Of a stretch of DNA of 47,737 bases, positions 3,308 to 46,098 are shown piece after piece (within the stretch, counting starts at the first letter, position 1; each line of letters starts with the position of its first letter). A model generated the notes under the pieces. The model was given only the letters and a program-made list of their open reading frames with translations, searched no databases and had not been told where the DNA came from. A program made the translations under genes and the position numbers. This stretch comes from a virus (taxonomy: Duplodnaviria > Heunggongvirae > Uroviricota > Caudoviricetes), in the IMG/VR virus record IMGVR_UViG_2541047873_000005; one strand, 5' to 3'.

Positions 3308-3883
3308 CTACGGCAGTGCTGGCCATTCAATATCCTGTGCAGTTGACGTATCAACACGGTTCAGCAATACCCGATACTTTTTCCATGCTTCCAGCAACGA
3401 GATTTCTTCCTCCGTTGCAATTTCCAGATCTGCAGCATCCTGAAGCGGCGCAATATGCTCACTGGCTACCTGCATCAGGTTGTTTTTTGTTTCTTCCGCC
3501 TCCCGGATCCGGAACAGTTTTTCTGCTTCCGTATCCTTCACCCAGGCTGTGCCGTTCCACTTCTGAAACTCCCCTTCCGGGGATAACCAGGTGACATTTT
3601 CCGGTAATGGGCCAAGTTCAGAAATAAATAACGCGTCGCCGGAAGCCACGTCATAGACGGTTTTACCCCGATGATCTTCAACGAGATGCCACGATGCCTC
3701 ATCACTGTTGAAAACAGCCACGAAGCCAGCCGGAATATCTGGCGGTGCAATATCGGTACTGTTTGCTGGCAGACCTGTATGAGGCGGAATATATGCGTCA
3801 CCTTCACCAATAAATTCATTAGTTCCTGCCAGCAGATTATAAATTTTTATGGTCCGTGGTTGTTCACTCATTCTGAATGCCAT
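3308..3883 (-). CDS. tfa: Tail fibre assembly protein Tfa
   Basis: N-terminus [20 protein letters not shown] matches lambda Tfa along its length; ATG overlaps the stf stop (TAATG). Confidence 0.85.
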
Positions 3884-6798
3884 TATGCAAGCCTCACAAT
3901 GTAGTTAAATGCGATGTTTTTGACAGTGTTTTCCGCGTTACCAGCAGCGTTAACGGTGATGGTGTGTCCATGTGAGCCAATCGCAACAGAGTGCGTATGA
4001 GCACCAATACCGACAGTATGTGCGTGAGCACCTGCAGATGCAGCTGTGCCGCTGACACTATGAGTGTGCGCTCCTGCAGCACTTGTATTCACACTGGCCG
4101 CAGACACTACCTTATGTACTGACCCATTTTGTGACCACTGGCTGACTGCTGATGCGCCTGTGACACTATGAGTATGGTTTCCGGCACTTGCGGCTGTACC
4201 GCTCACACTGTGCGTATGCGCCCCGGTGTTATTCGTGGATTTAGTGCCGTAATCAAACGACGATGTGGTTTTCGTCCCCAAATCCGTACTGGATGCACTG
4301 GCGCTGTGGGTGTGCGATTTAATGCCGTCCTGTTCCTGAGACAATACGGCCCGACCACTGGCAGGTTTGCCCTTAATCGTCCAGCCACGCATATCAGGGA
4401 TCACGCCTGACGGATAAGCGGTTGCAAGTTTCGGGTAAGCGGATTTGTCAAAAGTCTGCCCCTGCATCAGGGCATAACCAGACGGAACGGTATCTGATGG
4501 CCACGGGATTGGTGCGCCAGGCGGATAAAACTGCTCTGATGGCGTATAGAGTGAATAAACTGTACCGTCCGTTAACCCTTCCGGCTTATTAGCAGAATAT
4601 GCTGGTGACGTATGAATAGTCACGCTGGCATTACTGGTATAATCCCATTGAATATTTACACCAGTCGCATAATTTCCGATTGCAACGTAAATATCGTAAG
4701 TATCACCAGATGTATTGACCCAGGCAAAATTTGTAAACCCTGTCGATGTGCGCTGCCATAAAGCACCAGTAATCCCCTTCGGATTACCATTACCTGCACG
4801 CAAAACAAGTTCAGATATACCTGCCTGTTGAGGTGACCCCACGTTAAATCCCGCGCCACCAATCAACGTAATTGAAACAACAGAACTCGCCTGTGGCATG
4901 GTTACCGTTGCTAATTTGAACCAACCAGCACCACCGCTGAATGACATTGTTGTTGAGTTAAGCGTACCAATATCTTTCGGCGTCAGTGTTATATCCGCTG
5001 AAAGCGCCTTACCATTCACCTTACGGGCAGAAGGTACCCGACCATTCGCATTATCATTAGCTGCTTTCACTGCTTTCGGTGTCGCGGCAAGCGTTTCAGA
5101 TGCGCTGTTGGTTGCACTACTGAGCTGGACAATTCCTTTTTGTGCTGTCGTAGCGTCCTGAGCAGTATATTTCCCGTTAGCAAGGTCATAGGCTGCCTTT
5201 ACCGACTTTGGCGTTGCCGCCAGCATTTCAGATGTGCTGTTGGTCGCGCTGCTGAGCTGAACTATCCCTTTTTGTGCTGTCGTTGCATCCTGTGCGGTGT
5301 ATTTCCCGTTAGCCAGCTCATACGCGGCCTTAACGGCTTTTGGCGTTGCCGCCAGTGACTCGGAAGTGCTGTTAGTCGCACTGCTGAGCTGTACTATCCC
5401 CTTTTTCGTCGTGCTCGCATCCTCAAGCGCCACGGCGGATGCAATATCCTCTGCCCGTTTTGCCGCTGTCTCGGCGCGCGTTGCCGCGGATTCCGCCGTA
5501 CTTTTGCTCTGAGCTGCCGCCGTCGCACTGCCAGCTGCCTCTGTCGCCTTCGTGGATGCCGTCGTGGCGCTGCCCTTTGCTGCTGACGCCTGTCTGGTCG
5601 CCTCATCTTTTGAAGCAGACGCAGATGATGCCGATGACGCCGCCGAACTGGCGGACGATGCGGCAGCCGTTTTTGAGGATTCTGCGCTGGTTTCCGACGC
5701 TTTCGCGTTCGTCTCGGATGTCTTCGCTGCGGAAGCAGACCTCGCTGCTGCGCTGGCCTGTTCAGTGGCTTCGCCAGCCTTCGTTGTGGCTGTTGAAGCG
5801 GACGATGCGGCGCTTTCTGCCGATTTTCCGGCAGCGGTGGCACTGGCTGAGGCCTGCCCGGCACTTGTTGACGCGGCACTGGCAGACGACGCAGCCGCTG
5901 TTTTTGAGCCTGCCGCAGCTGAGGCGCTCTGTCCCGCTGCCGTCTCAGAAGACCTGGCGTTCGTCTCGGACGTTTTTGCCGCCTTCGCGGAATTTGCTGC
6001 CGCCGTTGCCGAGGAAGCTGCGCTACTGGCGCTCGAGGATGCGTTCGTTTCTGATGATTTTGCCGCCTCTTTTGAAGCCGACGCATCCCGGGCTGAGGTG
6101 GCAGCTTCTGACGCTTTCGTGGTCGCGGTGGATGCAGAAGTGGCGGCTGATTGTTGTGACGCTGCAGCATTCGTTTCTGACGTTTTCGCGGCAGCGGCAC
6201 TGGTAGCTGCCGCGCTTTTTGAGGACTCTGCAGCGGCAGCACTTTTTTCCGCTTCAGTGGCCTTTGTTGATGCCGTTCCTGCGCTGGAAGACGCTGACTG
6301 AGCCGACGAAGCGGCCTGTCCGGCTGACGTGCTGGCTGCACGTGCTGAATCTGCAGCATCAGTCGCATGGGTTGCCGCCTCACGGGCAGATGTGCCGGCA
6401 TCACTGGCTGACTTCTTCGCGGCTGCCGTGTTCTGTGCCACCACGGACGCGTTACGCGCCACCTCTTCCACCATCTGTTCAAAACGGCGCAGTGCCTCCG
6501 GACGGGCATCATCCTCCGTCATGGCACCGAGAAAATCATTCAGCGTACCGGGTTGAGAATCTTCATACACGGTGATGGTCCCGGCATGTGACGGCGGGAA
6601 TCCTTCCACCAACAGAATAACGCTGTACTGCCCGTACTCAACGTCCATGCTGTAACGCCCGGCTTCATCCGGATTTTCTGAGGCCAGCGTGTTCACCACC
6701 ACCGTGGTGCTGTTACGTTTTGCTTTCAGCTGGATTGTGCAGTTCTGTACCGGTTTTCCTGTGCCGTCTTTCAGTACACCTGAAATCTTTACTGCCAT
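3883..6798 (-). CDS. stf: Side tail fibre protein Stf
   Basis: [27 protein letters not shown]-terminus and [23 protein letters not shown]-terminus as in lambda Stf; Ala/Ser/Thr-rich middle, three 40-aa tandem repeats, His-rich GAHTHS C-terminal repeats; ATG at 6798 (track ORF begins at alternative start 6804). Confidence 0.85.
5040..5410 (-). repeat. Three tandem ~120-bp repeats inside stf encoding [28 protein letters not shown](E/D)[15 protein letters not shown]
   Basis: Near-identical DNA units seen directly at about 5100, 5220 and 5340; coordinates approximate. Confidence 0.7.
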
Positions 6799-6805
6799 AT
6801 TCACC

Positions 6806-35935: not shown

Positions 35936-36262
35936 ATGACTAAAAATACTCGTTTTTCCCCCGAAGTCCGTCAACGGGCAGTCCGTATGGTTCTGGAAAG
36001 TCAGAGCGAATATGACTCACAATGGGCGACAATTTGTTCCATTGCTCCAAAGATTGGCTGTACGCCGGAGACTCTGCGTGTCTGGGTTCGCCAGCATGAG
36101 CGGGATACCGGGGGCGGTGATGGAGGGCTCACCACCGCTGAACGTCAGCGTCTGAAAGAGCTGGAACGTGAAAATCGTGAACTGCGCCGCAGTAACGATA
36201 TCCTTCGCCAGGCTTCCGCTTATTTTGCGAAGGCGGAGTTCGACCGCCTCTGGAAAAAATGA
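35936..36262 (+). CDS. IS629 transposase OrfA (HTH)
   Basis: 108 aa [37 protein letters not shown]...; ends next to an A6 run usable for -1 frameshift into orfB. Confidence 0.9.
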
Positions 36263-37149
36263 TGCCACTGCTGGATAAGCTGCGTGAGCAGTACGGGGTC
36301 GGACCGCTATGCAGCGAACTGCATATTGCCCCGTCAACGTATTACCACTGTCAGCAACAGCGACATCATCCGGATAAACGCAGTGCCCGTGCGCAGCGCG
36401 ATGACTGGCTGAAGAAAGAGATACAGCGCGTATACGATGAAAATCACAAGGTATACGGTGTGCGTAAAGTCTGGCGTCAGTTGTTACGGGAAGGTATCAG
36501 AGTGGCCAGATGCACTGTGGCACGTCTCATGGCGGTTATGGGACTTGCCGGTGTTCTCCGGGGTAAAAAGGTCCGTACGACCATCAGCCGGAAAGCCGTT
36601 GCCGCAGGCGACCGCGTAAACCGTCAGTTCGTGGCAGAACGACCTGACCAGCTGTGGGTGGCTGATTTTACTTACGTCAGCACATGGCGGGGCTTCGTCT
36701 ATGTGGCGTTCATCATTGATGTGTTTGCCGGATACATCGTGGGGTGGCGGGTCTCATCGTCCATGGAAACGACATTCGTGCTGGATGCACTGGAGCAGGC
36801 GTTATGGGCCCGTCGACCGTCCGGCACGGTCCATCACAGTGATAAAGGTTCTCAGTATGTATCGCTGGCCTACACACAGCGGCTTAAGGAAGCCGGATTA
36901 CTGGCATCAACAGGAAGTACAGGCGACTCGTATGACAACGCGATGGCGGAGAGCATCAATGGTCTTTACAAAGCGGAGGTAATACACCGTAAGAGCTGGA
37001 AAAACCGTGCAGAAGTGGAACTGGCCACACTCACGTGGGTGGACTGGTATAACAATCGACGATTGCTGGAAAGGCTGGGCCATACTCCTCCGGCAGAAGC
37101 AGAAAAAGCTTATTATGCTTCCATCGGAAACGATGATCTGGCAGCCTGA
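36259..37149 (+). CDS. IS629 transposase OrfB (DDE integrase core)
   Basis: 296 aa, -1 frame overlap with orfA; DDE motifs (WVADFTY..., HSDKGSQY..., DNAMAES). Confidence 0.9.
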
Positions 37150-37385: not shown

Positions 37386-38921
37386 TTGTCGCTGGAGGTA
37401 CTTTCTCAATTTTGCCCGACGATAGAGCTACCCGAACTTCAAGCTCGTATTGCTGATACACTTTGGGTTCGTAAAATTGGTGGAATCCGTTTTCCTTTGC
37501 TGGCAGTCCGTGCTTATTATGCGTCCAGTATAGCTATTATGACATCGCAAGGGACGTGGGTTAGTGCTTTAGAACGCCTAGAGCGTGCGCTTAGGCTGTG
37601 TTGTTTTTTTCGAAAGAATACTGATTTCAGGGATGAATTTGATCAGCTTTCGGCACATCTACTAGCAGAGTATGAACGTACCAGAGAACAAGGCGATTCA
37701 CCTTATCCGCTGCGACTCCTGCAACTCGATATCGACTGTAAAGTGAGTGAGCCATCTTTTATTGCCCAGGAACTCCTGTTTCTGACAAAAAACTATCTGG
37801 CTCAAAAATTATTTTCATTTGCCGTCGATGCCTGTAAAACCGCAATCACGATTGCGAATAGGTGCTGTGACAGAGATACACAGTTTGAATTCTGGCGGCT
37901 TCTTGCCGATACACATCTGGAAGAGTCAAAATTCCAAGATGGCGGTATGATTTCGGCAGCCTGCATGCAGAATGCTATTGAAGCACTGGCTAATATTCCA
38001 GGAACCCGAATAGAACGTCTTGCGCTGTATGAAGAAATGCGTGATTACCAAATCGAATCCCGTCACCAGATGTCTATCCTTCAGTCTCCCCCTCAAGATA
38101 TTAGTGAGATTGTCCATCAAGCCAAGAGTCGGGTAGTCGGAAGAGATATGTTTGATATGGTTTTCAGACTTGCGATGCTGGTCTGTCGGCCAACCAGCAT
38201 TGAGAGACTTAAGGCTCAAGCAATAGAACAAAAGGCCAACAGCATAGCTTGGATGTTTGGATCAACACATATTGATCATGAGGGAATGACACTTGCTCGC
38301 ATACCCGCAGGATTGGGGATTGATGATGCAAATGGGGCAGTTATTTGGCCCATAATGATGACGAGAATGCGTATCGACCATGAGTTGGCAGTAGCTGGGC
38401 AAATTATTCCTGCTACAGATGAGATCACAATGAAATATCCAATCTCGGAGGCGTTTTTTCGCGATATGTTCATCAATCATCCCTTCATCCCGTTTGGGCA
38501 TGAAGAGTTTTTCATCAAGGGTATGGTTTGCGGTTTCAATGGAGATTTTATGACGGCATGCCACGTGTTGATTCCCCAGATCGAAAATAGTCTGAGATAT
38601 GTGGCTAAAATTAAAGGTGAGGAACCATCGCAGCTTCACGGGGACGGTTCGCAAGAGCGAAATGGACTCAAGGGATTACTAGATAATCCACTGATTATTG
38701 AAGCTTTCGGCGTAGACATAATTGGCAATCTTCAGGCCTTACTGGTAGATAAAATCTATGGTGATTTACGAAATCAACTAGCTCACGGATATGTGCCTGC
38801 CGGTTACTACAATCAACCTCCCTGCATTTTTGCATGGTGGCTTGTATTGCACATTCTAATGAACCCTACGGCGAGATACTGGCAAGCCACTTATGGCCAA
38901 GAGAGTGAGGCTCAGACTTAA
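37386..38921 (+). CDS. 3' fragment (511 codons) of the IS629-disrupted gene
   Basis: Track ORF from TTG at 37386; contains DLRNQLAHGY near the C-terminus (about 38768..38785). Confidence 0.5.
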   Translation: MSLEVLSQFCPTIELPELQARIADTLWVRKIGGIRFPLLAVRAYYASSIAIMTSQGTWVSALERLERALRLCCFFRKNTDFRDEFDQLSAHLLAEYERTREQGDSPYPLRLLQLDIDCKVSEPSFIAQELLFLTKNYLAQKLFSFAVDACKTAITIANRCCDRDTQFEFWRLLADTHLEESKFQDGGMISAACMQNAIEALANIPGTRIERLALYEEMRDYQIESRHQMSILQSPPQDISEIVHQAKSRVVGRDMFDMVFRLAMLVCRPTSIERLKAQAIEQKANSIAWMFGSTHIDHEGMTLARIPAGLGIDDANGAVIWPIMMTRMRIDHELAVAGQIIPATDEITMKYPISEAFFRDMFINHPFIPFGHEEFFIKGMVCGFNGDFMTACHVLIPQIENSLRYVAKIKGEEPSQLHGDGSQERNGLKGLLDNPLIIEAFGVDIIGNLQALLVDKIYGDLRNQLAHGYVPAGYYNQPPCIFAWWLVLHILMNPTARYWQATYGQESEAQT

Positions 38922-39139
38922 AGTGAATAAGTTTACGAAGTTGGCACTTCCGGATGCATGTCCATATGAGTTGAGGCGATTTGGTTAATAAGGTTGAGTG
39001 CTGCTGAAATTATTCGATGTCCGCTTTTGGCACAAAGCGGACAACCACGCCAGATCTACCCTGTGCCATGAAAAATGAGAATGTCAATTCACTCCTGAAC
39101 TAATGCTTTTTAATCTAGTAACGTCTAAAATACCTAACA

Positions 39140-39541
39140 TTATCCCTGATAAAATGCCAGTATGCGCTGCATAACTTCACTCATCCGGCACTCGCGACAG
39201 ATTATGTTTAGGCGACTGTCGTAGCGACGTATTTCTCCATCAGGTAACGACCAGATAAGGTCCGGATCAACCACAGCTGTTTTCTTCACCTTTGCCCTCG
39301 AGAGTTTTTTGCGGGCGTTTTGCCAGTCCTTACGCGCCTGTTCAGACGGGAATAACCCGTAGCCGGAGTTGTATACATCGCCACTGGCTACCAGCTCTCT
39401 GGCAAGAACGCTCATCAGATATCTAGTCGCACCTGTTTTAGCTTCCAGTTGCCGTAACGTCTCACGACCGCTCTGGCGCACGAGTTCCACCACCTGCCCT
39501 TTAATTTTTTCCCGCTCTTCTTGTGTAAAAACTTTTGCCAC
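39140..39541 (-). CDS. Hypothetical protein (133 aa) downstream of replication initiator
   Basis: ORF in the position normally held by a P/DnaC-like loader but far too small; no recognised motif. Confidence 0.45.
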   Translation of the reverse strand: MAKVFTQEEREKIKGQVVELVRQSGRETLRQLEAKTGATRYLMSVLARELVASGDVYNSGYGLFPSEQARKDWQNARKKLSRAKVKKTAVVDPDLIWSLPDGEIRRYDSRLNIICRECRMSEVMQRILAFYQG

Positions 39542-39581
39542 AAGTCCCCCTTAAAATTACCTCATGACCTGAAATCAAAAC

Positions 39582-40601
39582 TTATCCTCTGAAACCAGGC
39601 GGAATTTCTGTATCCGGTTCAGAAATATGATTAACACAACGCTGTACAGGTGAACGCCCCAGGCGGATGACCAGTTCGTCCCATTTTTCGCGGAGCTTTG
39701 ACGGGCTCATGATGTTTTTTACCCAGAATGGATCCCGCTGTACCCGACCAAACATTTCACAAATTTGTCTGTGGCTTCTGCCATCCAGCATCCGCATTGT
39801 GCGCACATCATTGGCCCAGACAGTCCAGTTAGGCTCTTTTGGTCGCATGATCTCGCCATCATCACTGGCGGCCTGTTCGTAGAGACCCACGATCCGCCCC
39901 CATATCCACTGCGCACACGCCAGATCCTCCTGGCTACCCCACTGGCGTTTTTTCGCACTAAACACAACTGCGCCAGGGTGCCGGATTAAAAAATCCTGTT
40001 CAGCCGTCTGCGGGTCCGGTTGCGAAGCTTCCGGACGAAAAGTGTTTTTATTCTCTGTAGTAATCTCTGTTGTATTCTCTGTAGGATCATCGGGCCATTT
40101 TGACCCGATGACATTGGGTCGTTTTGAACCAATGGAGCGTTTCATTTTGACCTCTTCCATCGTGTCATTTTGACCTGATGGAGCGGCGCATTTTGAACCG
40201 ATGGATTCGCTCAATTTGCCATCATCTAAAAGCTCGCTTCCATAGTTAATCGTGTAGAAATTGGTCATATCGCGCTTTGATTTATTGAGCTTTTCACAAC
40301 GCAAAAGCCCCAGCGTTTTCAGACTTGCAAACGCGCGCTTTAACGTTGACTCTGACCAGAATGGGAACTGTTCCAGCCATTGTTCCGTTGTGTTGTAAAT
40401 CCAGCGAACACCATCACATTCCATGCCGGAATTGGTATCTCTCAACCAGTAATGCAACTGCTGCAACACAATGGCTTCATTTAAGCCAATCTTCATCGCA
40501 AGCTGTGTGTTTATAACCAGTGGGCGTTCAGCAAAAAGAAGGCTCATAATTCCATCCAGCTTTTTGTTGGTATTGCTGTCGATACGCAAGTTTGAAAGCA
40601 A
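39582..40601 (-). CDS. Replication initiator protein (lambda O-like) containing ori iterons
   Basis: 339 aa with N-terminal HTH-like domain; repeated IGSK protein motif encoded by DNA iterons; next to cro/cI-like genes. Confidence 0.7.
   Translation of the reverse strand: MLSNLRIDSNTNKKLDGIMSLLFAERPLVINTQLAMKIGLNEAIVLQQLHYWLRDTNSGMECDGVRWIYNTTEQWLEQFPFWSESTLKRAFASLKTLGLLRCEKLNKSKRDMTNFYTINYGSELLDDGKLSESIGSKCAAPSGQNDTMEEVKMKRSIGSKRPNVIGSKWPDDPTENTTEITTENKNTFRPEASQPDPQTAEQDFLIRHPGAVVFSAKKRQWGSQEDLACAQWIWGRIVGLYEQAASDDGEIMRPKEPNWTVWANDVRTMRMLDGRSHRQICEMFGRVQRDPFWVKNIMSPSKLREKWDELVIRLGRSPVQRCVNHISEPDTEIPPGFRG
40045..40210. repeat. Candidate origin of replication: five ~16-bp iterons (cATTTTGAcCyGATGG) at ~23-bp spacing plus adjacent TTCTCTGT direct repeats
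   Basis: Copies at about 40096, 40120, 40143, 40166 and 40189; three TTCTCTGTAG-like repeats at 40049..40084; all inside the O-like gene as in lambda. Confidence 0.6.
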
Positions 40602-41049
40602 TTGCTTTTTCTATAAGTTCGTCAGTTTCACGATCCACTACGGCAGGATCAGCAAAAAGCAGTCCGGACTCCACCACATCGCCATATTCTTTGTTTAACC
40701 CGGCGATCATGTACGTGATGCTTTTTCCGTCACTAATTTCACGATACAACCTGAAATCATTAATCCGGATAGCCTCCATAATTGCAGGCACTAGCGCCGT
40801 GAACTTTTCACGCTTATCCCTGGTGTCGATAGCCTTCCAGCGTTCGAATATCTTCACTCGATTAACGCCAAGCGCTCGCTGATCAACCGCGCCACCTTCA
40901 TCTGTGACACGCTGAACATCGATGTTCGGGCGCTCTTTCAAAGCCCAGAATGCTTCAGTGATTAATATCGTCGCCTGCTCCTGTGTCATTCCTGGTCGAC
41001 ATATCCAGGCATCCAGAGCCTCACGAGCCTGTTCAGGAGTGATTTTCAT
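40528..41049 (-). CDS. Hypothetical protein (173 aa) in the cII/YdaT position
   Basis: ORF between cro-like gene and replication initiator; weak resemblance to Rac YdaT around KREKFTALVPAI. Confidence 0.45.
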   Translation of the reverse strand: MKITPEQAREALDAWICRPGMTQEQATILITEAFWALKERPNIDVQRVTDEGGAVDQRALGVNRVKIFERWKAIDTRDKREKFTALVPAIMEAIRINDFRLYREISDGKSITYMIAGLNKEYGDVVESGLLFADPAVVDRETDELIEKAIAFKLAYRQQYQQKAGWNYEPSFC

Positions 41050-41260
41050 TGTTCAACCGCCCCGCCCGCTTCGTCTTACGATATTCGTCATAAACCTTGG
41101 GATCATACAGAAGCTCGCCGCCAGATGCCTCCTGTAGACGCATCGCGCGACCTTCAGGAACCAGCTCTTGCCATTGAGAAACAGCAGATGGGTCAACGCC
41201 AGCAGCTTTCGCTACTTTGGCTTTCGTACCGTAAAAATTAATTACGTCTGATTTAAACAT
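41033..41260 (-). CDS. dicC: Cro-like repressor DicC
   Basis: 75 aa; C-terminal half LVPEGRAMRLQEASGGELLYDPKVYDEYRKTKRAGRLNNENHS matches recalled K-12 DicC; divergent from dicA. Confidence 0.75.
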   Translation of the reverse strand: MFKSDVINFYGTKAKVAKAAGVDPSAVSQWQELVPEGRAMRLQEASGGELLYDPKVYDEYRKTKRAGRLNNENHS

Positions 41261-41337
41261 CGCACCTCCAGTATTGAGTTTTCTCAATGCTAATCACTCA
41301 AGGAATCTCAAGTCAAGGGTTATTAAGATATCTAAAT
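41261..41337. promoter_or_regulatory. dicC-dicA divergent promoter/operator region
   Basis: 77-bp gap between divergent repressor genes; palindrome TTGAG-tttt-CTCAA at 41274..41287 and tandem CTCAAG repeats. Confidence 0.4.
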
Positions 41338-41745
41338 ATGAACGAGAAAACTTTAGGTCAACGCATTAGAGAAAGACGTAAGCAGGTAGGTTTAAGTCAA
41401 AACGGTTTAAGCAAAGCTGCTGGCGTATCTGGCTCATCAATTTCATTATGGGAAAGTGACCATACAGCCCCGCGCGGGCAAAATTTGCATCGCCTCGCCG
41501 AGGTATTGCAATGTTCACCAACCTGGATACTGTTTGGCGACGAGGACAAAACACCAGCTCCCCCTGTTTCACTCGATAGTGCCTTAGACTTATCGGAAGA
41601 TGAGTTAGAGATGCTGCGTTTGTATCGCGCACTTCCTAAATCAGAGCAACAAGCACAACTCAGCGAACTCCGCGCCCGCGTTGAGAATTTTAATCGCCTG
41701 TTCACCGAGCTATTAGAGGCTCGCAAACGCAACAAGCATCAATAA
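41338..41745 (+). CDS. dicA: cI-like repressor DicA (HTH XRE family)
   Basis: 135 aa from MNEKTLGQRIRERRKQ...; shares VLQCSPTWILFGDEDK and C-terminal pattern with K-12 DicA. Confidence 0.8.
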   Translation: MNEKTLGQRIRERRKQVGLSQNGLSKAAGVSGSSISLWESDHTAPRGQNLHRLAEVLQCSPTWILFGDEDKTPAPPVSLDSALDLSEDELEMLRLYRALPKSEQQAQLSELRARVENFNRLFTELLEARKRNKHQ

Positions 41746-43626: not shown

Positions 43627-46098
43627 ATGAGTAAAGTCTTTATTTGCGCCGCTATTCCTGACGAACTGGCAACAAGGGAAGAAGGCGCTGTGGCTGTAGC
43701 CACAGCCATTGAAGCTGGCGACGAACGCCGTGCTCGAGCAAAATTTCACTGGCAATTCCTGGAACATTATCCGGCTGCTCAGGACTGCGCTTATAAATTT
43801 ATTGTCTGCGAGGATAAACCTGGCATACCCCGCCCTGCCCTCGATTCATGGGATGCTGAATATATGCAGGAAAACCGCTGGGATGAGGAGTCTGCTTCTT
43901 TTGTCCCGGTTGAGACTGAATCCGATCCGATGAACGTCACTTTTGACAAGCTGGCCCCTGAAGTACAGAACGCTGTCATGGTTAAGTTCGACACATGTGA
44001 AAACATCACCGTTGATATGGTTATTAGCGCACAGGAATTGTTGCAGGAAGACATGGCAACATTCGACGGACATATCGTTGAAGCGTTGATGAAAATGCCA
44101 GAAGTTAACGCCATGTATCCGGAGCTTAAGTTGCACGCCATTGGGTGGGTTAAGCATAAATGTATTCCTGGTGCTAAATGGCCCGAAATTCAGGCAGAGA
44201 TGCGCATCTGGAAAAAACGTCGCGAAGGTGAACGCAAGGAAACCGGAAAATACACGTCTGTTGTTGATCTCGCCCGCGCCAGAGCCAATCAACAGTACAC
44301 TGAAAATTCAACAGGAAAAATCAGCCCGGTCATTGCTGCCATTCATCGCGAATACAAGCAGACATGGAAAACACTGGATGACGAACTGGCCTACGCTCTC
44401 TGGCCTGGTGATGTGGATGCCGGAAACATTGACGGCAGCATCCATCGCTGGGCAAAAAATGAAGTTATCGATAACGACCGCGAAGACTGGAAGCGTATCT
44501 CGGCATCAATGCGCAAACAGCCTGATGCCCTTCGCTACGACCGCCAAACTATTTTTGGCCTTGTCCGTGAACGTCCGATCGACATTCACAAAGATCCCGT
44601 AGCACTGAACAAATATATCTGCGAATACCTGACGACAAAGGGCGTGTTTGAGAATGAAGAAACAGACCTGGGCACTGTTGATGTTCTCCAGTCATCAGAA
44701 ACACAAACTGATGCAGTGGAAACTGAGGTATCTGATATCCCAAAAAATGAAACCGCGCCGGAAGCTGAACCATCTGTAGAGCGTGAGGGGCCGTTCTATT
44801 TCCTCTTCGCAGATAAGGACGGAGAAAAATACGGTCGCGCAAACAAACTTTCTGGTCTGGATAAGGCACTGGCTGCTGGCGCCACTGAAATCACAAAAGA
44901 AGAATATTTTGCCCGAAAAAATGGCACATACACGGGCTTACCGCAAAATGTAGATACCGCTGAAGATTCAGAACAACCAGAGCCGATAAAAGTTACCGCT
45001 GACGAAGTAAACAAAATTATGCAGGCAGCCAATATCATCCAGCCTGACGCCGATAAGTTGCTTGCTGCATCACGTGGTGAATTTGTTGAAGGGATTAGTG
45101 ACCCGAATGATCCGAAATGGGTTAAGGGGATCCAGACCCGCGATTCTGTGAACCAGAACCAGCATGAATCGGAACGGAACTACCAAAAAGCGGAACAAAA
45201 CAGCCCAAATGCGTTACAAAACGAGCCAGAAACGAAACAGCCTGAATCAGTGGCGCAACAGGAAGTGGAAAAAGTCTGCACCGCCTGCGGTCAGACCGGC
45301 GGCGGCAACTGCCCTGATTGTGGCGCGGTAATGGGCGACGCAACATACCAGGAAACATTCGATGAAGAGTATCAGGTTGAAGTTCAGGAAGATGATCCGG
45401 AGAAAATGGAAGGCGCTGAACATCCACACAAGGAGAACACTGGCGGCAATCAGCATCACGATAGCGATAATGAAACTGGCGAGACGGCAGATCACTCAAT
45501 TAAGGTGAACGGTCATCACGAAATCACATCCACCAGCAGGACGTGTGACCATCTAATGATCGACCTTGAAACCATGGGAAAAAATCCTGATGCCCCGATC
45601 ATCTCAATAGGTGCAATATTTTTCGATCCGCAAACCGGAGATATGGGACCGGAATTTATTAAGACTATCGATCTGGAAACTGCTGGCGGAGTCATTGATC
45701 GGGACACCATTAAATGGTGGTTTAAGCAATCACGCGAAGCGCAATCTGCCATTATGACCGATGAAATCCCGTTAGATGATGCACTGTTACAATTGCGGGA
45801 ATTTATCGACGAAAACTCCGGTGAATTTTTTGTTCAGGTCTGGGGAAATGGAGCCAACTTCGACAACACGATTTTGCGCCGTTCATACGAACGGCAGGGG
45901 ATCCCCTGCCCGTGGCGTTACTACAACGATCGCGATGTACGCACAATCGTTGAGCTGGGGAAAGCCATAGACTTCGATGCCAGAACGGCTATTCAATTCG
46001 AAGGTGAGCGCCATAATGCACTTGATGACGCCCGTTACCAGGCAAAATACGTTTCAGTTATCTGGCAAAAACTGATCCCGAGTCAGGCTGATTCTTAA
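43627..46098 (+). CDS. ydfE: YdfE-like N-terminal domain fused via zinc-ribbon and acidic linker to a DEDDh 3'-5' exonuclease domain
   Basis: 823 aa; N-terminal ~300 aa match recalled K-12 YdfE; CTACGQTGGGNCPDCG zinc ribbon; C-terminal Exo I (MIDLETMG), Exo II-like (WGNGANFDNTIL) and Exo III (HNALDDARY) motifs. Confidence 0.7.
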   Translation: MSKVFICAAIPDELATREEGAVAVATAIEAGDERRARAKFHWQFLEHYPAAQDCAYKFIVCEDKPGIPRPALDSWDAEYMQENRWDEESASFVPVETESDPMNVTFDKLAPEVQNAVMVKFDTCENITVDMVISAQELLQEDMATFDGHIVEALMKMPEVNAMYPELKLHAIGWVKHKCIPGAKWPEIQAEMRIWKKRREGERKETGKYTSVVDLARARANQQYTENSTGKISPVIAAIHREYKQTWKTLDDELAYALWPGDVDAGNIDGSIHRWAKNEVIDNDREDWKRISASMRKQPDALRYDRQTIFGLVRERPIDIHKDPVALNKYICEYLTTKGVFENEETDLGTVDVLQSSETQTDAVETEVSDIPKNETAPEAEPSVEREGPFYFLFADKDGEKYGRANKLSGLDKALAAGATEITKEEYFARKNGTYTGLPQNVDTAEDSEQPEPIKVTADEVNKIMQAANIIQPDADKLLAASRGEFVEGISDPNDPKWVKGIQTRDSVNQNQHESERNYQKAEQNSPNALQNEPETKQPESVAQQEVEKVCTACGQTGGGNCPDCGAVMGDATYQETFDEEYQVEVQEDDPEKMEGAEHPHKENTGGNQHHDSDNETGETADHSIKVNGHHEITSTSRTCDHLMIDLETMGKNPDAPIISIGAIFFDPQTGDMGPEFIKTIDLETAGGVIDRDTIKWWFKQSREAQSAIMTDEIPLDDALLQLREFIDENSGEFFVQVWGNGANFDNTILRRSYERQGIPCPWRYYNDRDVRTIVELGKAIDFDARTAIQFEGERHNALDDARYQAKYVSVIWQKLIPSQADS

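Follow-up and report, generated by a model that had tools for sequence, protein, structure and literature searches.

The locus considered here lies in a stretch of 47,737 nucleotides from a tailed virus (IMG/VR record IMGVR_UViG_2541047873_000005; the whole stretch is called the window below), which is a Qin-type lambdoid prophage of Escherichia coli beside rspB. In the middle of its replication initiator gene a short motif is repeated at a regular distance, and this raises the question of whether the repeats act as DNA, in the manner of the iterons of a replication origin, or only reflect a repeated peptide in the encoded protein. A preliminary description of the window had taken them for the prophage origin, organized like lambda ori within gene O. 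It was found that the segment 40040-40226, inside the linker-coding part of the initiator gene, is very probably the vegetative replication origin of this prophage.

The repeats were examined with a repeat finder and with Tandem Repeats Finder (TRF). A 23-bp period was detected by both at 40088-40226, where six units lie head to tail with start spacings of 24, 23, 23, 23 and 23 bp, and the core CATTTTGAMC is present in five of the six. The five motif copies at a spacing of about 23 bp that had been reported earlier were recovered by the repeat finder, by TRF and by motif matching, and a sixth, degenerate unit was added to them. The motif as originally written matched without mismatches at 40096, 40166 and 40189, with two mismatches at 40120 and with three at 40143. 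Exact TTTTGAMC sites number ten in the window on both strands, and five of these are located in the array, on one strand and within 101 bp. When autocorrelation was calculated over all positions for periods of 9-40, the array was the top periodic signal of the 47.7-kb window, with a match fraction of 0.63; in 200 simulated sequences the maximum had a mean of 0.481 and a standard deviation of 0.016, and the largest value was 0.538. Thus, conservation of spacing and sequence, which had been proposed as the point to check with a repeat finder, was borne out by a regular 23-bp array ranking first in the window. No second array of the iteron motif was found in the window by motif and core scans. 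Clear palindromes are formed by three of the six units, with the dyad centred on an A-tract on the gene strand (for example, CATCGGGTCAAAATGGCCCGATG).

Immediately beyond the last iteron, on its 3' side as the gene is read, the GC content of the initiator gene reaches its minimum (30%, at 40040-40079). This tract holds three 12-bp direct repeats, which on the gene strand are three copies of ACAGAGAWTA(C); TTCTCTGT is present in two exact copies and one copy with a single mismatch, and TRF reported a separate period-12 array at 40052-40084. The preliminary description was right in placing three direct repeats beside the iterons, and only the statement that they precede the iterons had to be corrected, since in a minus-strand gene they come after them. 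When this minus-strand gene is followed in the direction of its transcription, the N-domain comes first, and then the iterons, the 12-mers and the C-domain, as in lambda. All of the repeats are within the initiator gene, as had been claimed, and the encoded protein matched the profile phrog_391, "replication initiation O-like", with an E value of 3.5e-92.

The origin region encodes residues 108-168 of the initiator, the iterons corresponding to residues 108-154 and the 12-mers to residues 155-168. In the AlphaFold2 (AF2) model, residues 109-178 form a linker between the folded regions 10-108 and 183-296; their predicted local distance difference test (pLDDT) values are below 30, and the linker is predicted to be disordered. 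Since 23 is not a multiple of three, the same motif falls into different reading frames, and the one 23-bp motif is indeed read in three frames: three copies give IGSK, one gives SGQN and one gives EVKM. The repeated IGSK motif of the preliminary description is accordingly encoded by only three of the five copies and is a by-product of the DNA repeat.

The behaviour of the repeats was then followed in 80 N-domain relatives from bacterial genomes and in several phages. In most of the approximately 80 relatives, down to 50% identity of the N-domain, the best of all periods tested just after this domain was 22-24 bp. The units of the relatives stay palindromic, and both half-sites change together, as in GGTCAAAATGACC, GGGCAAATTGCCC, GGACAATTTGTCC, GTGCAAATTGCAC and GGATCAAAATGATCC. 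Of 185 distinct iterons, 112 had complementarity between the base flanking the core and its partner, compared with 62 expected from composition, and the complementary pairs were T-A (56), G-C (33) and A-T (16). Symmetric covariation of half-sites reads as the signature of a site recognized by a symmetric protein dimer. Among E. coli variants of the initiator, P0018-P0023 (290 residues) have exactly 31 residues fewer, that is, 93 nt or four iteron units, which is consistent with recombination between two in-frame IGSK units; P0100 and P0119 contain one extra 12-mer (TTEN).

The 12-mers encode TENTTEITTEN in frame, and their codons were compared among the relatives. There were 109 copies of ACAGAGAHTAC and none of the synonymous ACAGAAAHTAC, although GAA and GAG are used 938 and 834 times, respectively, elsewhere in the same open reading frames (ORFs). 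CAGAGAHTA was found 148 times in 36 kb of linkers of the relatives versus 8 times in 822 kb elsewhere (both strands), which is a 421-fold enrichment. In 46 of 53 measurable loci, the first 12-mer begins 18-21 nt past the core of the last iteron, and in a few loci 12-mer copies are 11 nt apart and hence in another frame. Taken together, the codon bias, the enrichment and the fixed spacing indicate that the 12-mers are a DNA element with a fixed geometry to the iterons; by analogy, the tract is proposed to be a DNA-unwinding or loading element. Considering that one motif is read in three frames, that the palindromes covary and that a 12-mer codon is invariant, it may be concluded from these patterns that the repeats are constrained as DNA signals and not as peptide repeats.

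The 12-mer has a wider distribution than the iterons. An exact scan of IMG/VR for two tandem 12-mers returned at least 120 stretches, of which 80 loci (L093-L172) were examined. A window-type N-domain was encoded 120-170 nt upstream on the same strand in 48 of these 80 loci, and 29 had other N-terminal domains with other iterons; all seven representatives taken from the latter group matched related PHROG "replication initiation" families (270, 391, 9773, 678, 428 and 6493). The 12-mer ACAGAGAWTAC thus recurs, next to iterons of different types, in related initiators of phages from Proteobacteria to Firmicutes, and it appears to be common to a superfamily of winged-helix phage initiators of Gram-negative and Gram-positive hosts, while the iterons vary. 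Three loci from metagenome-assembled genomes labelled Veillonella, Bacillota and Collinsella (L008, L009 and L056) encode an N-domain 100% identical to that of E. coli; most likely, these are E. coli prophage contigs mis-binned into Firmicutes and Actinobacteria genomes.

Which part of the initiator goes with the iterons was indicated by reciprocal mosaics. Phages of Klebsiella, Pantoea, Providencia and Staphylococcus share the N-domain and have other C-domains and other neighbouring genes, and in them the iteron type and the 12-mers are kept. Shigella phage SfIV shares the C-domain and tail and has an unrelated N-domain, and its linker contains different, 15-bp iterons (CCGTCAAAATCTGAC) and no 12-mers. 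Therefore, the iterons travel with the N-domain, and iteron type tracks this domain rather than the C-domain in the loci compared. The SfIV initiator itself, the O-like gp41 (L089 2383-3324), has at least five of the 15-bp iterons in its linker, where they encode DPSKSDASKSDPSKFDASKS, and represents the same design with another specificity.

The initiator ORF as listed mechanically extends over 39582-40601 with a TTG start at 40601 (339 residues), and annotated relatives start at the ATG at 40547. The match to phrog_391 covers residues 35-339 of the 339-residue ORF and positions 11-298 of the 298-position profile. No family was assigned to the initiator by Pfam (E <= 0.01) or NCBIfam, apart from a weak match to the DnaT tail in NCBIfam. 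An identical gene product is named "hypothetical protein" by PGAP/RefSeq (WP_000054487), and the name "replication initiation O-like protein" is used in phage HannyBb. A fusion protein of 448 residues, composed of the cII-like/YdaT product and the initiator, is annotated in some genomes (P0002-P0004); the window has a 20-nt overlap between the two genes, at 40528-40547. The N-domain, presumed to be the iteron-binding domain, is kept from Enterobacterales to Firmicutes. In a Foldseek search, its top matches in the PDB were the N-domains of RepA_N proteins (4pql, 4pt7 and 5kbj, the last with DNA), which were weak (E 0.02-0.08, TM score 0.43-0.51), and generic winged-helix proteins of the MarR type scored about as well. 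Because these are only weak winged-helix matches, membership of the N-domain in RepA_N is not claimed. When the protein was compared with lambda O by BLASTP, only the C-terminal half aligned (residues 147-294 with 135-270, 34% identity over 148 columns, E 3e-27); no alignment was obtained between the N-terminus of lambda O and the N-domain, and no Pfam Phage_rep_O match was found at E <= 0.01. The preliminary description of the gene as O-like thus holds for the C-domain, which is homologous to that of lambda O, and does not extend to the N-domain or to the presence of a P partner.

Lambda O works through P, and the genes that could take the part of P were therefore of interest here. No match to lambda P, to a phage helicase loader or to a DnaB-like helicase was found in the window by phmmer, and the terminase is the only ORF of at least 150 residues with a Walker-A motif. 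A loader is not encoded beside the initiator in the deposited genomes of HannyBb, mEp460_4F5, mEp460_ev081, Klebsiella ST147-VIM1phi7.2 and SfIV either. In place of this, the window protein ends in a tail of 21 residues that is identical in 16 positions to the tail at the C-terminus of E. coli DnaT, as determined by phmmer against the PDB chains 2ru8, 6aep and 9zbt. The corresponding NCBIfam match is weak, covering DnaT residues 160-179 of 179 with 16 bits against a cutoff of 201, and nothing aligns with DnaT outside the last 21 residues. It is mainly because of this tail that such phage proteins carry the database name "Primosomal protein I". The C-terminal tail of DnaT is described as highly flexible and 20 residues long (PMC5778457), and a 2026 cryo-EM paper on the preprimosome and reviews likewise call the tail flexible and name no binding partner for it.

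The distribution of the tail was compared with that of downstream loaders. Among non-redundant relatives, an ORF with a Walker-A motif or similar to lambda P or DnaB was present within approximately 1.9 kb downstream in 0 of 20 tail-bearing loci and in 28 of 56 tail-less loci; the Fisher p value of this anticorrelation is 2e-5, uncorrected for phylogeny. Two loci (L016 and L018) have the same N-domain without the tail, followed by a lambda P homolog. Since there is no P, DnaC-like or DnaB-like gene in the module, we infer that the tail may take the place of a phage loader, in that it engages host proteins of the primosome or of helicase loading and so provides the link to the host DnaB-loading machinery.

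Because dyad-symmetric iterons, their site in the linker, a promoter-distal AT-rich tract and a homologous C-domain are all shared with lambda, the earlier proposal of a lambda-type organization within an O-like gene is supported. By analogy with lambda ori, the initiation of replication can be pictured as follows. The iterons would be bound by N-domain dimers and thereby become wrapped in a complex like the O-some; strain from the wrapped complex would open the adjacent 12-mer tract; and the C-terminal part would then bring in the host helicase. The DnaT-like tail, and not a phage loader, would couple the complex to the host DnaB-loading machinery. In lambda, transcription through the origin assists opening, and here transcription from the cro promoter through the origin may be of similar help. 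The positions of the features considered are given in Table 1.

Table 1. Positions in the window of the origin region, the initiator gene with its domains, and the neighbouring genes.
Feature	Position	Strand	Remarks
Replication initiator gene, 321 residues	39582-40547	-	overlaps the upstream cII-like gene by 20 nt
N-terminal winged-helix domain, residues 10-108	40224-40520	-	AF2 pLDDT 70-85; topology H-H-b-b-H-H-b-b
Iteron unit, degenerate	40204-40226	-	extends past 40210, where the preliminary description ended the array
Iteron unit, half-site	40181-40203	-	
Iteron unit	40158-40180	-	
Iteron unit, core only	40135-40157	-	
Iteron unit	40112-40134	-	
Iteron unit, best dyad	40088-40110	-	gene strand CATCGGGTCAAAATGGCCCGATG
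Three 12-bp direct repeats	40049-40084	-	TATTCTCTGTAG / TAATCTCTGTTG / TATTCTCTGTAG; gene strand CTACAGAGAATA / CAACAGAGATTA / CTACAGAGAATA
AT-rich tract holding the 12-mers	40040-40087	.	A-rich on the gene strand; composition profile
C-terminal domain, residues 183-296	39660-40001	-	AF2 helical, pLDDT 60-77; homologous to the lambda O C-domain
C-terminal 21-residue tail	39585-39647	-	VQRCVNHISEPDTEIPPGFRG; 16/21 identical to the E. coli DnaT C-terminal tail
cII-like/YdaT-family gene, upstream of the initiator	40528-41049	-	Pfam YdaT_toxin; phrog_163 CII-like activator, E 2.3e-40
cro-like gene	41033-41287	-	Pfam P22_Cro, E 4.4e-16; first gene of the operon reading through the origin
Predicted sigma-70 promoter, candidate pR	41287-41316	-	TTGACT-18-TAGCAT; would direct transcription across the origin; consensus scan only; weak
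cI-like repressor gene, divergent	41287-41745	+	Pfam HTH_3, E 2.2e-15
DUF977/Ren-like gene, directly downstream of the initiator	39140-39541	-	Pfam DUF977, E 6e-27; phrog_142 Ren-like exclusion protein, E 1.9e-44

The surroundings of the origin are those of a lambdoid phage. A full set of lambda-like structural and lysis ORFs is present in the window, and an identical copy of the region elsewhere is annotated with ydfT, ydfU, rem, hokD, ydfA, dicB and ydfD. Most of the surrounding 2.7-kb module is found in 615 of 5426 complete E. coli genomes (approximately one in nine), and the module is present at 96.6-97.5% DNA identity in the deposited phage genomes HannyBb, mEp460_ev081 and PhiR42_1. It is also carried by circular extrachromosomal records of approximately 40 kb. 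Circular "plasmid" records of 40-44 kb (L091, NZ_CP081704.1; L092, NZ_CP074176.1; hits H114 and H115) are whole lambdoid phage genomes with this type of initiator. In the stretches of approximately 6.5 kb that were examined, neither a helicase gene nor a loader gene could be recognised, and the records probably represent phage DNA that has been excised or is replicating.

Several other elements of the window were recorded. An insertion sequence (IS) element of the IS3 family, with two overlapping ORFs (HTH_Tnp_1 and rve) at 35936-37149 on the plus strand, lies 2.4 kb away. It adjoins, on the upstream side, a DUF7380/DUF4209 gene at 37386-38921 (plus strand), which encodes 511 residues from a TTG start and which is longer in strain 118UI (595 residues; L001 5035-6822); probably, this gene was truncated by the insertion. 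The second-strongest periodic signal, at approximately 45125-45250 on the plus strand, has a period of 21, a match fraction of 0.61 and a GAAC/AAAC-rich sequence, and it is located inside ORF 43627-46098, an exonuclease gene of 823 residues. Because its period is a multiple of three, it probably encodes a low-complexity peptide linker. A 132-bp tandem repeat (5090-5406, 2.4 copies, 83% match) is located inside a tail-fibre-like ORF of 973 residues (3883-6804).

Other functions of the origin region were also considered. No RNA families were found in 39000-41400 (Rfam, E <= 1), and an RNA element was dropped as a reading after this search. A DnaA box near 39905 (ATATCCACT), integration host factor sites and primase trinucleotides in the 12-mers were judged by eye, and none was convincing. 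A centromere or partition site was rejected as well, since there are no par genes nearby and the array goes together with the N-domain of the initiator and with the AT-rich element.

Three explanations compete with a functional origin. That the repeats are a tandem peptide repeat or a low-complexity linker with no function as DNA is scarcely tenable: their position inside a coding region, the threefold IGSK, the in-frame TENTTEITTEN and the fact that PHROG profiles run through the motif would all agree with it, but the period is not a multiple of three, the peptides from two of five copies are unrelated, the units form palindromes in the DNA and covary symmetrically, none of 109 12-mers has the synonymous GAA codon, some loci have 12-mers at 11-nt spacing in other frames, and the region is predicted to be disordered. 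The iterons might instead be regulator binding sites serving autorepression, copy-number handcuffing or phage exclusion, with the true origin elsewhere. Plasmid iterons do have control roles, and unwinding at the array is argued here by analogy. Ectopic copies of lambda ori are reported to inhibit lambdoid phages (PMC4488673, PMC3349717). Control sites of this kind are nevertheless an unlikely explanation, given that in most relatives the array is coupled at a fixed 18-21 nt to conserved AT-rich repeats, which is the anatomy of an opening site, that the window has no second array of the motif, and that the layout is colinear with the proven lambda origin.

It is also conceivable that the origin architecture is real and has become an inactive relic in a defective prophage without a helicase loader. 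Such a state would agree with the lack of a homolog of lambda P, DnaB or a loader in the window, where the terminase is the only Walker-A ORF, with the nearby IS3-family element and with the K-12 Qin prophage at the same locus, which is defective. However, this is very unlikely, because the initiator ORF is intact and nearly identical to those of deposited phage genomes that are equally without a loader, because loader-less modules are the rule among tail-bearing loci (none of 20 with a downstream ATPase or P gene), and because the structural and lysis ORFs are all there. Several points have to be set against a functional origin. When promoters and terminators were scanned for, a single weak promoter-like site was obtained upstream; nothing exceeded the expectation from shuffled sequences, which contained more sites, and the scan was not used as evidence. 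The AF2 model is based on a shallow alignment (18 close sequences, mean pLDDT 57), the N-domain has no Pfam family and only a weak fold match to RepA_N initiators, the AT-rich tract is moderate (30% GC over 40 bp), and the comparative counts lack phylogenetic independence. As a helicase loader is not encoded, the helicase-recruitment step is a conjecture, and the literature search returned no report of this sequence firing as an origin or of the protein binding it. Full-text searches with the iteron and 12-mer strings and with the TEITTE and TENTTE peptides gave only unrelated papers, older subscription literature being mostly outside their coverage, and nothing specific to this initiator family was obtained from a literature search on "initiator-solo" phages and on iterons inside the initiator genes of phages.

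Two linked readings go further than the identification of the origin. In one, the 12-mer is a conserved, sequence-specific opening or loading element, which may span winged-helix phage initiators from Proteobacteria to Firmicutes irrespective of iteron specificity or C-domain and may correspond in phages to the oriC 13-mers or DnaA-trios, with the initiator perhaps binding it in single-stranded form. In the other, loader-less "initiator-solo" phages have captured a host DnaT tail, which may plug the origin complex into the host primosome and DnaB-loading pathway. Taken jointly, these two readings are tentative, and we consider it somewhat doubtful that both are correct. If they are, phage origins could be located from sequence by means of the invariant 12-mer, as an origin element of broad conservation, a partner-binding function would be assigned to the DnaT tail, and the DnaT-like tail would account for the loading of the host helicase in lambdoid phages that have no P gene.

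Recognition of the initiator and of its embedded origin allows better annotation of prophages and provides this group of phages with a defined origin. The locus is, in addition, a natural example of coding sequence shaped by an overlapping DNA signal, with one motif in three frames and one glutamate codon used exclusively. An origin within an initiator gene is a known organization; what we infer to be beyond the textbook picture is the non-lambda N-domain, the 12-mer shared across phyla and the DnaT-like tail in loader-less modules, and these three deserve experiments.

Known systems resemble the window element in different parts of its design. DNA-unwinding elements include the 13-mers of oriC, the 13-mers of RK2 oriV, which are bound as single-stranded DNA by TrfA, and the DnaA-trios. 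Like these, the 12-mers are short direct repeats in an AT-rich tract that directly adjoins the last initiator box at a fixed distance, an analogy of arrangement only, as the sequences are unrelated. In RepA_N plasmids, the origin iterons are located centrally in the rep gene, with a winged-helix N-domain on one side of them and a host-specific C-domain on the other. The RepA_N initiators of Firmicutes plasmids (pSK41/pTZ2162 RepA; 4pql, 4pt7 and 5kbj) gave the best structural matches to the N-domain; unlike the window initiator, they are plasmid proteins, and the likeness amounts to 16-19% identity and a weak fold match (E 0.02, TM score approximately 0.5), with no family match at the sequence level. 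E. coli DnaT (primosomal protein I) resembles the initiator only in its last 21 residues and is no homolog of it as a whole. Shigella phages SfII and SfIV and their relatives have O-like initiators called "primosomal protein"; these share the lambda-O-like C-domain, the ...IPAGFRG tail, the lack of a downstream loader and iterons in the linker, whereas they differ in the N-domain, in having the 15-bp iterons CCGTCAAAATCTGAC and in lacking ACAGAGAWTAC 12-mers after the iterons.

The whole arrangement has a counterpart in lambda and its relatives. Stx phages 933W and P27 have six-iteron origins (PMC7466680) and thus resemble the window element in the number of units. In the same source, the minimal substrate for unwinding in lambda is reported to be two iterons plus the AT-rich tract (citing Dodson 1986; Wickner and McKenney 1987). 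According to the annotated lambda record, lambda ori consists of four iterons at 39034-39118 in the middle of gene O, with spacings of 20, 24 and 23 bp, followed by an A-rich tract. Direct comparison of the lambda AT-rich region (L007 1120-1165) with the tract of the window demonstrated that both are A-strand-biased and promoter-distal. In both systems, the origin lies in the central part of the initiator gene, in the linker that joins the domains, and is composed of dyad-symmetric iterons at 20-24-bp spacing with an A-tract core, which is TCAAAACG or TCAAATTG in lambda and TCAAAATG, TCAAAACG or GCAAATTG in the window element. The lambda iterons (ATCCCTCAAAACGAGGGA) and those of the window have the common centre TCAAA(A/T)(C/T)G and different arms, and the two initiators have a homologous C-terminal domain. 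Unlike lambda, the window element has an N-domain that is not that of lambda O, an AT-rich tract made up of three copies of a conserved 12-mer, a DUF977/Ren-like gene at the place where lambda has P and then ren, so that no P gene follows the initiator, and a protein that ends in a DnaT-like tail. As judged from these comparisons, the window protein is a hybrid, which combines a lambda-O-like C-domain with a DNA-binding domain of another kind.

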